Positions 1,587-28,520 of a stretch of 64,000 nt of DNA are shown in pieces. The DNA is taken from the IMG/VR virus record IMGVR_UViG_3300035505_000178. One strand, written 5' to 3'. Position 1 is the first letter of the stretch. Every line of letters starts with the position of its first letter. A program made the translations under genes and the position numbers. This stretch comes from a virus. Its lineage: Duplodnaviria; Caudoviricetes. Below the pieces are notes generated by a model that worked only from the letters and a program-made list of their open reading frames with translations, had not been told where the DNA came from and did no database searches.

Positions 1587-1953
1587 ATTTAGAGGTAAAA
1601 CGAAGTTTGACAAAAAATGGGTTTATGGAGTTCCTGTCAGATTAGGAACTGATACTTTAATCGTTGATAATCCTACATACTTTCTTAGTGCTCCTTACAA
1701 AGTTAGAGATGACTTAGCCTCTGTTAATGCTTACATTGTTGACGCTGATACCGTTGGACAATATACAGGGTATAATGACCCTGACATCTATGAAGGTGAC
1801 ATACTACTTTGTGCTATGGAGACAGATTGTGTTGTACGTTTTAAAAACGGTTCTTTTATAACAGAAGGTCGTGATGGATCTGAATATTTACTTTCAGATA
1901 CTATCGAGATATGTTTAGGAGTTATTGGAAATATATTTGATAACAAATGGTAG
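1573..1953 (+). CDS. YopX-family protein
   Basis: MREIKFRGK...W-VYG...TVGQYTG...IYEGDIL...VIGNIFDN signature. Confidence 0.9.
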   Translation: MREIKFRGKTKFDKKWVYGVPVRLGTDTLIVDNPTYFLSAPYKVRDDLASVNAYIVDADTVGQYTGYNDPDIYEGDILLCAMETDCVVRFKNGSFITEGRDGSEYLLSDTIEICLGVIGNIFDNKW

Positions 1954-6284: not shown

Positions 6285-6470
6285 ATGAAAATTTTTTGTT
6301 TATTTATAATCATGCTTATTTTGTTTTTACAAACATGTACTTCTGTTGTTATTAGAAAGAGCGACTGGAAAACTTTAAATTATAAAGTTGATTCTTTGGA
6401 ACACAGAGTTTATGTTCTTCAAAAACAAAATGATAGTTTAAAAATAGAATTAAAATGCAGGGAAAACTAG
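6285..6470 (+). CDS. Small secreted/lipoprotein-like protein
   Basis: Hydrophobic N-terminus with Cys, coiled-coil tail. Confidence 0.55.
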   Translation: MKIFCLFIIMLILFLQTCTSVVIRKSDWKTLNYKVDSLEHRVYVLQKQNDSLKIELKCREN

Positions 6471-7063
6471 CAATCGCAAGAGGAGAAATAACACGATATT
6501 TAAATTCTCAGAACGATGTTCCATATGAAGCTGAATGTTGTAGAGATGCTTTAAATGCGTTTAGTATATTATCAGGAAGATATAATTATGTTAAAGGTCA
6601 CACCTTTGATATTCTTACTCGTTTAGTTGATGGACTTCCTCTTACTCCTATAACGGAAGATGATTTTGAGAGTTATAATTATCAATCTGATCATCCTGAT
6701 ATTAAATATACTAATCATTGTATTCGAATGGATCTTGATAGAGAAATTCGTCGTGATGGAAGTATAACATACCATGATTATAACCGATCTTATTGTATTG
6801 ATGAAAATGGTAATGAACTTAGAATATTAAAACTCGAACGAGTTATTGATGAGATATATCCAATACAACTTCCTTATTATCCAGATTCTGGAAAATATGT
6901 GTTGTATGTAGAGGATTTTAATGTTAAAGATAATTACTATTGTAGAGTTTATAAAATAAAAGTTCCAGAAGGACACACTTGTGCTGTACATGGAATATTT
7001 TATAAAAATAGTACAAAGATTGGAGAAGATGAATTTATTAACGCCAGAAAATTAAGAAAATGA
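6455..7063 (+). CDS. Conserved phage hypothetical protein
   Basis: ORF track; 'PLTPIT.DDF' and 'PI.LPYYP' motifs. Confidence 0.7.
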   Translation: MQGKLAIARGEITRYLNSQNDVPYEAECCRDALNAFSILSGRYNYVKGHTFDILTRLVDGLPLTPITEDDFESYNYQSDHPDIKYTNHCIRMDLDREIRRDGSITYHDYNRSYCIDENGNELRILKLERVIDEIYPIQLPYYPDSGKYVLYVEDFNVKDNYYCRVYKIKVPEGHTCAVHGIFYKNSTKIGEDEFINARKLRK

Positions 7064-7410
7064 AAACAGGAATTAAAGAAGTTAAAAAAGAGTTTATTAC
7101 AAATGATAAGAATATTGTTTGTATTGTTTATATAAAACAAAAAAATTATAATATTAAGGTAGTAGCTAAAGGTATTTCTCGTTGTAGTGACGAGGATGAG
7201 TTTGATCCAGAATTTGGAAGAAGACTTGCCGAAGCAAAAGCTCTCAAGAAGGGTTATTGTAAAATAGCTAAGATTATGCTTAATAAAATTCAAAAGTTAG
7301 AGGAACTTTCTGATAATTTATATGATTTTATGATAAATGTCATTACTGCAGAAGGTTCAGAGGCAGATAGATTGGAATATTTAATTAACAATAAATTCGG
7401 TAAGCAATGA
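7060..7410 (+). CDS. Phage hypothetical protein ('C..EDEFDPEFGRRLA' family)
   Basis: Motif related to 16564..17106 (CSPGDEYDEEVGKQIA). Confidence 0.7.
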   Translation: MKTGIKEVKKEFITNDKNIVCIVYIKQKNYNIKVVAKGISRCSDEDEFDPEFGRRLAEAKALKKGYCKIAKIMLNKIQKLEELSDNLYDFMINVITAEGSEADRLEYLINNKFGKQ

Positions 7411-10418: not shown

Positions 10419-10491
10419 CCCGTATTCGTATATGGAGTACGCTCCGACTCTAAATCGGTGAGGTCTGCAGTTCGATACTGCTTATACGGGC
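10419..10491 (+). tRNA. Amber suppressor tRNA (anticodon CTA), probably Gln-inserting
   Basis: CCCGTAT/ATACGGG acceptor; CCGA-CTCTAAA-TCGG anticodon arm; T loop TTCGATA; late genes carry in-frame TAG. Confidence 0.88.
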
Positions 10492-10605: not shown

Positions 10606-10779
10606 ATGTTTATGCGTAAAGTAATTCTTTTCTCTGCCTTTATTTTGGGCATGATGTGTTCTTGTGGCAATAAGCCAGCAAATGTTTCTACTTCTGCAGA
10701 TTCAACAGCAGTTGATTCAATTGAAGTTGTAGATACTTTGTCAGTAGATACATTAACTCTTGATACTTTGTCAGAGTAA
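10606..10779 (+). CDS. 57-aa lipoprotein with repeated D-(S/T)-x motifs
   Basis: MFMRKVILFSAFILGMMCSCGNKPANVSTSADSTAVDSIEVVDTLSVDTLTLDTLSE; SPII-type signal with S-C-G-N lipobox (alternative start 10612). Confidence 0.8.
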   Translation: MFMRKVILFSAFILGMMCSCGNKPANVSTSADSTAVDSIEVVDTLSVDTLTLDTLSE

Positions 10780-10821: not shown

Positions 10822-10896
10822 TGGAGGTATAGCTCAACAGGTTAGAGCAATTGACTGTTAATCAATAGGTTATAGGTTCGAGTCCTATTATTCCAG
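10822..10896 (+). tRNA. tRNA-Asn(GTT), bulged acceptor stem
   Basis: ATTGA-CTGTTAA-TCAAT; canonical D and T arms. Confidence 0.85.
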
Positions 10897-11020
10897 CTAA
10901 AGAGATAATTAAGTTTAAAGGACACATTCTTAATTATCATGCACTTCTTTTAGAATATAAACAATAAATAATTAGTGCGTTATTTGTAGTTTATTTAAAA
11001 AATGTAGGTCCGTTTTTGTT

Positions 11021-11097
11021 TGATACTTAGTCCAACCGGCAGGACGCTCATCAAAGTACTGAAATGAGAGGTAGTGGTTCGAATCTGCTAGTATCAA
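11021..11097 (+). ncRNA. tRNA-like RNA with 12-nt anticodon loop
   Basis: TGATACT/AGTATCA, GTCC/GGAC, CTCAT-CAAAGTACTGAA-ATGAG, T loop TTCGAAT. Confidence 0.75.
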
Positions 11098-11135
11098 CAA
11101 TTAACCATATGTGATTTAATTTTAAAAATTGCTTT

Positions 11136-11163
11136 AATAGACGGTCTGTGAAGATAGTCTATT
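11136..11163 (+). repeat. Conserved GYGA hairpin, copy 1
   Basis: aatagac-GGTCT-GTGA-AGATA-gtctatt. Confidence 0.7.
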
Positions 11164-11295
11164 TTAAATGATGTATATGGTCAACATCAACGCAGTTCTA
11201 TTTCGCGAGAGAATGTGCAGAGAGTAAGGTGCAAGACAGTAATGGAGAGGGCAGAAGTTCTTGAAAGTACACGATGGAAGTATATATCATTAAAA

Positions 11296-11369
11296 GGATC
11301 CGTAGCTCAGTTGGTTAGAGCAATAGACTCATAATCTGGAGGTCATAGGTTCAAGCCCTATCGGATCCA
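11296..11369 (+). tRNA. tRNA-Met or Ile2 (CAT)
   Basis: GGATCCG/CGGATCC acceptor; loop CTCATAA. Confidence 0.9.
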
Positions 11370-11370
11370 C

Positions 11371-11464
11371 AAACCAGAGAAATCCAGGTTAAAATCCTGT
11401 TTGGAAATAGACTACACATCATTGTTTGCCTATTTAGCATATAGTAGAATAATGCGCTGGTTTT
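11371..11464 (+). ncRNA. Candidate circularly permuted tRNA-like RNA
   Basis: 3' half (ACCAG, T arm, AATAGAC) precedes 5' half (GCCTATT-TA-GCAT...ATGC-G-CTGGT). Confidence 0.5.
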
Positions 11465-11466
11465 AT

Positions 11467-11541
11467 AGACCGTTAGTTCAGTTGGTTAAGAATGTTTGTC
11501 TTACACACAAAAGGTCGTAGGTTCGAGTCCTACACGGTCTA
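11467..11541 (+). tRNA. tRNA-Val(TAC)
   Basis: AGACCGT/ACGGTCT acceptor; loop CTTACAC. Confidence 0.92.
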
Positions 11542-11561
11542 CTAAAGGTTAAACATGTGTG

Positions 11562-11589
11562 AACTTCTGGTTCGTGAGAATAGGAAGTT
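11562..11589 (+). repeat. Conserved GYGA hairpin, copy 2
   Basis: aacttct-GGTTC-GTGA-GAATA-ggaagtt. Confidence 0.7.
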
Positions 11590-11593
11590 TTAT

Positions 11594-11664
11594 CTCCGAT
11601 TGACCGAGTGGTTAGGTGAAGATCTGCAAAATCTTAAACATTGGTTCGAATCCAATATTGGAGT
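11594..11664 (+). tRNA. tRNA-Cys(GCA)
   Basis: CTCCGAT/ATTGGAG acceptor; AAGAT-CTGCAAA-ATCTT; U discriminator. Confidence 0.9.
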
Positions 11665-11666
11665 CT

Positions 11667-12107
11667 ATGATAAAACACAAAAGTAAAGACGCAAAAGAAG
11701 ACCTAGAAACATTTCGTAAATTCTCTTCTGAACATTTAAAAAGTAGAAGAGAATATTATGGACATCTTTGGGAAGATGCTCCAGAAGAGTTCAAGTCTGA
11801 TATAATAAATCAGATTAATAAGGAAATGGAATGGATGTTTGATTTACATCCATATTATGTAGGTAAGAGATGGTTACAATGTAATGCTAGTAGATACCCT
11901 CGTTACTGTAGAGTTAGTAACATTGAATGGGAATTTCCAGATATTACTAATAGTGATAAATTATATCCTGTTGTAAAAAGTATGAAGATTGATGACCACG
12001 ACGTAAATGGAAAAATTACCTACAGTATGACCTATGAATATCCAGAAGAAGATTGGTTCTTAGATGGATGGGTCAATCGTAAGTCAAATGATATAGATGA
12101 TGATTAA
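11667..12107 (+). CDS. Hypothetical protein within tRNA cluster
   Basis: Start moved to ATG 11667 because the track start overlaps tRNA-Cys. Confidence 0.7.
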   Translation: MIKHKSKDAKEDLETFRKFSSEHLKSRREYYGHLWEDAPEEFKSDIINQINKEMEWMFDLHPYYVGKRWLQCNASRYPRYCRVSNIEWEFPDITNSDKLYPVVKSMKIDDHDVNGKITYSMTYEYPEEDWFLDGWVNRKSNDIDDD

Positions 12108-12158
12108 TTTTATAGTTTAAGTTAGTGTATAAATAATTTGTTTGTGAAAATAGATTAA

Positions 12159-12242
12159 TGGAGTGCTGCAGAGTTGGCGAACTGCGATAGACTGTAAATC
12201 TATTGACTTTGGTCTGAGGGGGTTCGAGTCCCTCCACTCCAA
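12159..12242 (+). tRNA. tRNA-Tyr(GTA)
   Basis: TGGAGTG/CACTCCA acceptor; ATAGA-CTGTAAA-TCTAT; long variable arm. Confidence 0.9.
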
Positions 12243-12269
12243 CGTATTGTGTTTTAGATAATCTGATCA

Positions 12270-12295
12270 ATGACTGGTCTGCGAAGATAGGTCAT
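12270..12295 (+). repeat. Conserved GYGA hairpin, copy 3
   Basis: atgact-GGTCT-GCGA-AGATA-ggtcat. Confidence 0.7.
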
Positions 12296-12296
12296 A

Positions 12297-12361
12297 GCAA
12301 TGTAGTGTAAGGAGCACGCTCAAAAGCTATGAGAAGTTTAGGTTCGATACCTGACATTGCA
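12297..12361 (+). ncRNA. tRNA-like RNA with 6-bp acceptor and non-canonical anticodon arm
   Basis: GCAATG/CATTGC, GTGT/GCAC, CTCA-AAAGCTA-TGAG, TTAGG-TTCGATA-CCTGA. Confidence 0.7.
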
Positions 12362-12427
12362 ACTCGTGTTTTCATGGTACGCTTATTAATTTAAGCATAT
12401 TAATTTTTTGATTGTTATTAATTTATT

Positions 12428-12459
12428 TAGGTAATTGGTTCGTGAGAATAGATTATTTA
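12428..12459 (+). repeat. Conserved GYGA hairpin, copy 4
   Basis: taggtaatt-GGTTC-GTGA-GAATA-gattattta. Confidence 0.7.
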
Positions 12460-12464
12460 AAAAC

Positions 12465-12554
12465 TGGGATGCTTGGTACAGAGTTGGAGAACTGTAACAG
12501 ACGATGAATCTGTTGGCATTTTTGCCTGAGTAGGTTCGAATCCTACCATCCCAA
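12465..12554 (+). ncRNA. tRNA-Tyr-like paralog with aberrant anticodon loop (CGATGAA)
   Basis: TGGGATG/CATCCCA acceptor; D arm nearly identical to tRNA-Tyr; G33; 6-nt acceptor-D linker. Confidence 0.75.
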
Positions 12555-12664
12555 CTAATTATGGTGATCGTACAATATCAAATTGGAATTGGTTTTGATT
12601 TTCAACCAATAGTTGTAAATCATTATATTGAAGAGATTAAATTATTTAATAAGATAAGATTAAA

Positions 12665-27881: not shown

Positions 27882-28448
27882 ATGAGTACAACAGTTTTGA
27901 ATTTCAAGAGAGTAGAGGTAGTAGCAGAGAGCAAAGAGGCAGCATTGGCACAGGTATCAGAGCTTTTCACAACACAGCAGAAGGATGCAACAACTGCATT
28001 TAAGAACTGGAAAAATAAGAAAGGTGGTATTATTAGTGAGCGTGATATTAAGGAGTTTATGTTGGATTACCTTAATCGCAACACTAAGAATTGTCCAGGT
28101 GCTTGCTGTTTGATTACTCTTGAGGCTGCCGTTAAGGATACTCGTGAGCGTCCTTACAAGCAGGTTAATGTAAAGAGCGAGGGTCGTCGTAAGTATAAGA
28201 AGTTCTTCAATATTCTCGACGAGGCAACAAATGAGTTGATTCTCCGAGTTGGTCCAGATAAGACTAAGGCTGAGGCTGCTAATGTTGTTAAGGATCTTTA
28301 CAAGACTGGTGATTTGAAGAAGGATGTAACACTCAGCTTGAGCCATGAGGTAGTAGAGGGTACTTCTGTCGTAATGAAGTTTAAATACACACCTTCTAAG
28401 AACTCTAAGCCAGGTCGTTATGTATTCTTTGGAATTGTAAACGATTAA
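27882..28448 (+). CDS. Conserved hypothetical protein, likely highly expressed
   Basis: Distinct codon bias (AAG/GAG/CGT); own promoter and terminator. Confidence 0.85.
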   Translation: MSTTVLNFKRVEVVAESKEAALAQVSELFTTQQKDATTAFKNWKNKKGGIISERDIKEFMLDYLNRNTKNCPGACCLITLEAAVKDTRERPYKQVNVKSEGRRKYKKFFNILDEATNELILRVGPDKTKAEAANVVKDLYKTGDLKKDVTLSLSHEVVEGTSVVMKFKYTPSKNSKPGRYVFFGIVND

Positions 28449-28485
28449 TTTTATCATATAAATATCCACTCCTTTTAGGAGATAC

Positions 28486-28520
28486 AAGGTCACTGCTCGT
28501 GAGGGTAGTGACCTTTTATT
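28486..28520 (+). terminator. GTGA-loop hairpin + T tract (also a GYGA-family copy)
   Basis: AAGGTCACTGCTC-GTGA-GGGTAGTGACCTT-TTATT. Confidence 0.75.

Follow-up and report, generated by a model that had tools for sequence, protein, structure and literature searches.

A strand-specific RNA hairpin with a constrained tip recurs in phage tRNA arrays and in Bacteroides

The gaps of a phage tRNA array were found to contain a hairpin motif that is real, widespread and absent from Rfam 15. Its explanation is held tentatively, at a little short of an even chance: an end-marking, processing or terminator element whose tip would bind a putative Bacteroidales factor. The copies in the array, their fold and spread, and the readings that compete with this one are described below.

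Hairpin copies in the window

The window (the whole 64-kb stretch of phage DNA that was analysed) carries a tRNA gene array on the + strand from 10000 to ~12555, in which 11 tRNAs, one with a CTA anticodon, were called by ARAGORN. Nine array tRNAs were recovered with Rfam at gathering score, and a tenth if the array was searched alone. Comparison of 10880-12600 with Rfam 15, at gathering thresholds and at E-values up to 5, returned tRNAs only, and seven related loci gave only tRNA matches to Rfam 15. The degenerate 15-mer GGTYYGYGARRATAG has four exact matches in the 64 kb, all within a 1.3-kb stretch (11143-12451), and a one-mismatch match at 12139 is a fifth copy with core TGTTTGTGAAAATAG. 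The first-pass annotation had listed four copies; these four stood, their cores being exactly as written and each folding into the hairpin described, but the count was incomplete, lacking the fifth copy and a diverged sixth at 28485-28516. With R1, a covariance model of the hairpin, the five strong window copies score 30-44 bits. The copies, in order of position, are:

Hairpin H1, 11136..11163, + strand: core GGTCTGTGAAGATAG at 11143; R1 42.6 bits; outer stem AATAGAC/GTCTATT, G-A mismatch, GTCT/AGAT, loop GTGA, then TTTA.
Hairpin H2, 11561..11590, + strand: core GGTTCGTGAGAATAG at 11569; R1 43.9 bits; outer stem GAACTTCT/GGAAGTTT, GTTC/GAAT, loop GTGA; ends 3 nt before tRNA-Cys.
Hairpin H5, 12134..12157, + strand: core TGTTTGTGAAAATAG at 12139; R1 29.8 bits; T-A in place of G-A, GTTT/AAAT, loop GTGA; lies after ORF 11667-12107 and ends 1 nt before tRNA-Tyr (12159).
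Hairpin H3, 12270..12295, + strand: core GGTCTGCGAAGATAG at 12276; R1 33.7 bits; outer stem ATGACT/GGTCAT, GTCT/AGAT, loop GCGA; abuts the weak tRNA at 12296.
Hairpin H4, 12426..12461, + strand: core GGTTCGTGAGAATAG at 12437; R1 39.2 bits; 11-bp outer stem, GTTC/GAAT, loop GTGA; 2-5 nt before the tRNA-like element.
Diverged sixth copy H6, about 28486..28515, + strand: R1 19.4 bits, E 9e-4; AAGGTCAC-T-GCTC-GTGA-GGGT-A-GTGACCTT, then ~TTTTAT; in terminator position, 37 nt past the stop of ORF 27882-28448.

The array elements and spacers next to the first five copies are:

tRNA-Leu(AAG), 11021..11098, + strand: upstream boundary of unit 1.
Spacer S1, 11099..11135, + strand: U-rich, one CAT; highly variable among close relatives.
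Stem-closed structured element of 129 nt, 11167..11295, + strand: downstream of H1; fold z -2.2.
tRNA-Val(TAC), 11467..11542, + strand: upstream boundary of unit 2.
Spacer S2, 11543..11560, + strand: one CAT, within ACATGT.
tRNA-Cys(GCA), 11594..11665, + strand: downstream of H2.
Spacer S5, 12108..12133, + strand: from the ORF stop to H5; no CAT.
tRNA-Tyr(GTA), 12159..12243, + strand: downstream of H5 and upstream boundary of unit 3.
Spacer S3, 12244..12269, + strand: no CAT.
Weak atypical tRNA, 12296..12363, + strand: 35.7 bits; loop AAAGCTA; downstream of H3.
Spacer S4, 12364..12425, + strand: opens with the box GTGTTTTCATGG, also seen behind tRNAs of other phages.
tRNA-like element, 12464..12555, + strand: long variable arm, loop CGATGAA; downstream of H4; not called by ARAGORN, and below threshold (25 bits) to the tRNA-Sec model.

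Between the end of H2, H5, H3 or H4 and the 5' end of the tRNA or tRNA-like element that follows there are 0-5 nt. The positions claimed earlier for H2 (3 nt before tRNA-Cys), for H3 and H4 (at tRNA or tRNA-like 5' ends) and for H1 (before the 129-nt element) were all recovered. Spacer folds containing the hairpins range from -5.7 to -18.4 kcal/mol, and all six copies fold. Folds of the five strong copies bore out that like cores are enclosed by unrelated outer stems; the G-A apposition, given as fixed, is present in H1-H4 but is T-A in H5. The first description of the hairpins is thus accurate but incomplete. The stem is followed by a run of four U in H1, H2 and H6 and by none in H3 and H5. 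None of the window hairpins was called by a simple terminator scan, and the window copies are poor classical terminators because their U-runs are short or missing.

Ten ORFs around the array (6.4-22 kb) were scanned. They include a glucosaminidase, an RNase H and helicases, and no RNA-processing enzyme was found among the ten. The phage collection searched with the array gave matches at the tRNA level only, a 287-aa neighbour protein used as a query for related loci gave no relatives, and the nearest record compared (G001) is without the array.

Fold, covariation and spread of the hairpin

Read from base to tip, the common fold has a variable outer stem of 5-11 bp, above which come a 1x1 mismatch, mostly G-A, and an invariant G-U; three pyrimidine-purine pairs then lead to a G(Y)GA tetraloop. 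When 75 distinct hairpins, pre-selected for at least five outer pairs and an exact core, were aligned, 95% of cells are paired compared with 63% in shuffles, and 354 cells are changed on both sides compared with 106 in shuffles; because of the pre-selection the inner-stem figures are not independent, and the real signal is the outer-stem covariation. Sliding the registers of this alignment lowered pairing to 34-47%. In a hairpin census made without fixed sequence, G-GTTC-GTGA-GAAT-A and G-GTCT-GTGA-AGAT-A occurred 44 times each. The less frequent forms retain the G-U wobble, a pyrimidine 5' strand and a loop of the GNGA type, and the combination of G-U, YYY/RRR and GNGA is dominant. Among 92 distinct examples, no information above background was found outside positions -1 to +14.

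The copies are co-oriented with the tRNAs and ORFs, and the opposite strand would have A-C and C-U at the G-U and G-A positions. The hairpin forms in the + strand transcript and is a strand-specific RNA motif. Rfam 15 holds no entry for it, and a full-text literature search for the 15-mers yielded no paper.

IMG/VR was scanned for each core followed by GGTTCRA 45-75 nt later. These scans gave at least 108 and at least 110 loci, compared with <1 expected by chance, and 314 exact cores were counted in the loci listed (at least 218), from 184 distinct contexts and with 89 different outer stems. Each of 49 whole phage records contains 1-8 copies, mostly clustered in 1-4 kb on one strand; the few singletons fall into two classes, lying either between co-directional ORFs with a U-run or 2-4 nt before a lone tRNA without one. 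In several phages, in DAC19 and at H6, the hairpin stands directly behind an ORF without any guide-like segment. Five or more T in the next 8 nt, often then an RBS and ATG, were found after 63% of the copies whose position was not forced by the scan pattern, and after only 25% of tRNA-adjacent copies. One hairpin, its outer stem included, precedes divergent tRNA-Gln genes.

Across the family, the gap from the stem end to the following tRNA is 2-9 nt. This linker is rich in A/U, contains almost no G, has U at position -1 in 62% and resembles an RNase P leader. The distance from loop to tRNA varies as much as that from stem end to tRNA, so there is no ruler, which argues against a promoter or a measuring nuclease; both the promoter and the ruler models were rejected on this ground. 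When the 3,251 ORFs near the arrays of the loci listed (at least 218) were clustered in a search for a partner protein, no family occurred in more than 4 of 23 lineages; the top neighbour families are NinG, SNF2 helicase, YopX, SPFH and HNH.

Outside IMG/VR, 185,579 prokaryote genomes were scanned and yielded 15 matches, 11-12 of them in Bacteroidales. In the complete Bacteroides chromosomes among these matches, the hairpins lie before anticodon-less tRNA look-alikes in prophage-type arrays. In the phage crAss001 (MH675552), which infects Bacteroides intestinalis, a single strong copy occupies 1878-1909, in the spacer between tRNA-Arg and tRNA-Glu and 5 nt short of the latter. DAC19, a phage of B. 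thetaiotaomicron, has three copies, at 67217, 9654 and 48038, the two inspected both lying between co-directional CDSs. The 12-mer GTCTGTGAAGAT occurs 3-10 times per Bacteroides genome and not in a Leyella genome, with 0 matches for the reversed control. R1 also matches Bacteroides chromosomes, likewise at 3-10 per genome, and most chromosomal matches of R1 or the 12-mer close a ~165-nt multicopy conserved Bacteroides element, which has no match in Rfam. The 12-mer was also found in the published Northern probe for the small RNA MasB; in the supplement of the FopS/RbpB paper it occurs in the MasB probe only. The presence of the tip in phages, in Bacteroides chromosomes and in MasB makes it a Bacteroidales-wide RNA feature and not the quirk of one phage.

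A possible role at RNA ends

As an end-marking element, the hairpin would mark the 3' boundary of an RNA segment. In RNA-gene arrays it would stand 2-9 nt ahead of a site cut by RNase P, with RNase Z presumably acting at the tRNA 3' ends; behind ORFs, hairpin and U-run together would act as a terminator or attenuator. After either cutting or termination, the upstream RNA, be it a tRNA trailer or an mRNA, would have the hairpin at its 3' terminus, where it may block 3' exonucleases, and it may also keep adjacent RNA modules from misfolding together. The tRNA-adjacent copies must be transcribed through, and the end of a transcription unit fits H6, the DAC19 copies and singletons. The sequence constraint on the tip implies docking of a trans factor, which would probably be a Bacteroidales RNA-binding protein or RNase. 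Several points weigh against this reading. The U-runs of the window copies are short or missing, and no conserved protein gene was found near the arrays. Cleavage by RNase P could be impeded, not aided, by a stable hairpin that sits only 1-3 nt from the site, and end protection alone does not explain 12-14 fixed nucleotides at the tip.

Intercistronic hairpins are familiar from coliphages, where the T7 RNase III sites R0.3-R1.3 and the T4 C(UUCG)G hairpins stabilise upstream RNA at 3' ends. Like these, the present hairpins are short, conserved and placed between genes of one long phage transcript. They differ in their fixed G-U, YYY/RRR, G(Y)GA and 1x1 mismatch, in a stem too short for classical RNase III, and in being concentrated in tRNA/ncRNA arrays with Bacteroidales hosts. 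With Rho-independent terminators they have in common a stem-loop, which in H6, the DAC19 copies and singletons lies at the end of a unit and in many family members is followed by a U-run and the start of the next gene. Unlike such terminators, the tRNA-adjacent copies mostly have no U-run and must be read through, and the tip keeps its sequence in contexts that are otherwise unrelated, which is not so in ordinary terminators.

Spacers and alternative readings

The first-pass annotation had described an anatomy of tRNA, U-rich spacer, conserved hairpin and tRNA, and this arrangement is real and turns up in hundreds of phage contigs. RNAs made of spacer plus hairpin would be set free by RNase P together with 3' processing. 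It had further proposed that the spacers are variable guides directed against start codons. The CAT triplets on which this was built are at the positions given, but the five spacers hold four CAT in 169 nt where 1.7-2.2 are expected, which is not significant, and two of the four sit in CATATG/ACATGT palindromes. When duplex energies were compared with shuffles at the 115 start regions of the window, S1, S2 and S3 paired no better than the shuffles; S4 and S5 reached z of about -2.5 to -2.9 against mononucleotide shuffles, values that come from A/T runs. In close relatives, which are assembled contigs of RNA libraries, S1 shows seven substitutions and a 6-nt insertion within 11105-11125; H1 shows no change, and the nearest one, at 11164, is 1 nt past the stem. 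With S3 and S5 lacking CAT altogether, the variable anti-start-codon guide is weakly supported.

What does recur in the spacers is only a short generic box. UUUCAU was found in the first 30 nt of 28/397 tRNA-trailer clusters compared with 7.0 +/- 2.7 in shuffles (~4-fold), trailers that carry it tend to have a hairpin further downstream (odds ratio 14, p 3e-11), and it is present in crAss001 and in window spacer S4. Enrichment of CAT upstream of the hairpin did not hold in the window; family-wide it did, with 58 compared with 42 expected. In both the UUUCAU and the CAT counts the loci were ascertained via the hairpin, and related lineages are among them; single-linkage grouping reduces the loci to ~23 lineages, so the counts are not independent across lineages.

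These family-wide figures bear on a modified form of the guide model, in which the freed spacer-plus-hairpin RNAs would be trans-acting small RNAs whose U-rich 5' part pairs with A-rich AUGAAA start regions, in mRNAs of the host or the phage, and so prevents initiation, while the hairpin with its conserved tip would serve as a stabilising or protein-binding handle. The Bacteroides small RNAs GibS and FopS have such a layout, a single-stranded 5' seed that pairs at the start codon and a 3' hairpin, and they repress (PMC11697453), which makes the mechanism proposed earlier biologically reasonable for Bacteroides hosts. Judged here from folds, the phage units resemble GibS, FopS and MasB (PMC7366714, PMC11697453, PMC10994844) in having a single-stranded 5' part ahead of a 3' hairpin, and the GUCU-GUGA-AGAU apex is identical in MasB. 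These small RNAs have their own promoters and conserved seeds, whereas the phage units lie between tRNAs and, UUUCAU apart, show little conservation in their 5' parts. A 6-7-nt A/U seed would be too generic for specificity and many hairpins stand behind ORFs with no guide part; together with the window results for CAT, pairing and S1, this leaves the modified model unlikely. Somewhat less probable still is a variant in which the units are phage versions of Bacteroides-type small RNAs with neither promoter nor terminator of their own, cut out by tRNA enzymes. A putative Bacteroidales RNA-binding protein would take hold of them by the tip and of host small RNAs such as MasB as well, and the UUUCAU box, paired with AUGAAA starts, would damp translation of host or early phage genes.

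Regulated read-through, of the nut/boxB or attenuator kind, would have a phage or host protein bound to the tip set the passage of the polymerase and so dose the array. The tip is fixed and the stem free, as in protein-bound hairpins, the GNRA-type loop is like that of boxB, several copies are followed by weak U-runs, and copies stand in series on one strand of untranslated arrays. Unlike at a lambda-type nut site, no boxA-like or other conserved linear element lies beside the hairpin in 92 distinct examples, and no conserved small protein gene was found nearby. Half of the window copies have no U-run. Lambda-type systems have one or two sites near promoters, unlike the arrangement of one hairpin per tRNA seen here, and regulated read-through is regarded as rather improbable. 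A DNA-level element, in which the imperfect inverted repeat would be either a single-strand hairpin site for exchange of tRNA-module cassettes or a hairpin from which a phage RNA polymerase starts, is very unlikely: arrays do gain and lose modules (an 83-nt element is absent from one relative) and an identical hairpin and outer stem precede the divergent tRNA-Gln genes, but G-U and G-A pair only in RNA of one strand, the distance to the tRNA start is not fixed, no integrase or Rep gene is linked, and the motif lies within MasB.

Several known elements were compared and set aside. Theta ribozymes adjoin gut-phage tRNAs (Bacteroidota) and are proposed to act in tRNA end maturation (PMC10879173). 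They start at the tRNA 3' end and form a nested double pseudoknot with no P4 (PMC10879173), whereas the present element is a simple hairpin beside the 5' end of the next tRNA. By inspection of S2, S4 and one related locus (L010), no complement to the spacer 5' end was found that could form the 7-bp P1, and the hairpin is at the far end, whereas the ribozyme cleaves within 5 nt of the tRNA 3' end; a theta/HDV-like ribozyme was rejected. An HDV-type or other ribozyme was likewise rejected, 10880-12600 giving no Rfam match to one at E-values up to 5. A CRISPR repeat or an RNA anti-CRISPR mimic does not agree with 89 different outer stems among 184 contexts, as the stem is not conserved. For a Y RNA or Ro60 partner, no Rfam match to Y RNA or YrlA was found, and no TROVE domain among the 10 ORFs at 6.4-22 kb. 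A similar 5' strand is seen in SRP RNA domain IV, in the sarcin-ricin loop, at the 5' end of human Y RNA and in T-arm mimicry, but in each the 3' strand or loop size differs, and none of these candidates has an Rfam match. Pairing of a CAU box with loop GUG was rejected because copies with a GCGA loop keep the upstream CAT, so that the two do not covary.

Non-tRNA RNAs freed by tRNA-processing enzymes include E. coli 3'ETS-leuZ, the T4 stable RNAs C and D and the MHV68 tRNA-miRNA units. None of these is known to have the present hairpin, and the phage spacer RNA is predicted.

To return to the end-marking element, the most likely role of the hairpin is to define and shield the ends of RNAs, both in phage RNA arrays and after some genes, and its tip is probably read by a putative Bacteroidales factor. 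The gaps of tRNA arrays, which are usually annotated as bare lists of tRNAs, hold a conserved and sequence-constrained RNA signal. This signal is common to hundreds of uncultured gut phages, crAss001, DAC19, Bacteroides prophages and host small RNAs. Bacteroidota are not known to have Hfq, ProQ or CsrA, and little has been learnt of the factors that bind RNA in them. The 12-14-nt fixed hairpin tip may serve as bait for finding a Bacteroidales RNA-binding factor. The hairpin also offers a handle on tRNA processing and dosing in crAss-like phages, amber suppressors included, and the question can be tested in existing culturable phage-host pairs.

Elements and genes of the tRNA array

Structured elements and atypical tRNA-like RNAs were located between or beside the tRNA genes of the + strand array, together with a short ORF.

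Features of the tRNA array (window coordinates)
10420-10491, tRNA with anticodon CTA (amber suppressor), member of the same array
10606-10779, 57-aa ORF with lipoprotein-type signal (…GMMCSCGNK), within the array
11167-11295, 129-nt element between hairpin copy H1 and tRNA-Met; 12-bp closing stem, fold z -2.2
11371-11466, 96-nt element closed by a stem, flanked by tRNA-Met and tRNA-Val
12296-12363, atypical tRNA-like RNA, 35.7 bits; loop AAAGCUA, position 33 = A
12464-12555, atypical tRNA-like RNA; long variable arm, loop CGAUGAA

The 96-nt element behaves as a gain/loss cassette, since it is missing in a relative's contig (run X4), where 11373 joins 11457 with AC between them. The 129-nt element gave no match in Rfam, and no call was made by ARAGORN for the tRNA-like RNA at 12464-12555. 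The CTA-anticodon tRNA has no hairpin immediately upstream. Elsewhere in the window, a 202-aa ORF (6455-7063) matched Tad3, an inhibitor of type I Thoeris, below threshold: E was 8.8e-5 and the score 22.7 bits, where the cut-off is 27.

A UUUCAU box in tRNA trailers

Many phage tRNAs of the IMG/VR hairpin loci (L001-L218) carry a UUUCAU(G/A) box in the trailer, 5-15 nt past the tRNA 3' end. The box was ~4-fold commoner in these trailers than in shuffles, and in some it is doubled (UGUUUCAUGUUUUCAUAAUG).

UUUCAU(G/A) boxes in tRNA trailers
12369-12376, window
1857-1864, locus L270

RNAs beside hairpin copies and a multicopy chromosomal element

Arrays of Bacteroides prophages (L001, L242, L247, L249-L252) contain tRNA-shaped RNAs in which a 5-bp stem and GAUA tetraloop replace the anticodon loop, each with a hairpin copy upstream; other neighbours in these arrays were scored by Rfam as tRNAs of 98-134 nt. 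Locus L044 contains a hammerhead-like core (CUGAUGAG ... GACGAAAC, ~7020-7075), flanked by two hairpin copies and lying upstream of tRNA-Gln.

Bacteroides chromosomes (L254-L266) carry a conserved, multicopy non-coding element of ~165 nt, of which B. xylanisolvens XB1A has 7 or more copies. Four hairpins are predicted in it, the final one being UAUAUCAAC-U-GUCU-GUGA-AGAU-C-GUUGAUAUA. The element gave no match in Rfam. PMC11697453 mentions paralogous sRNA families, and this element may represent one of them.
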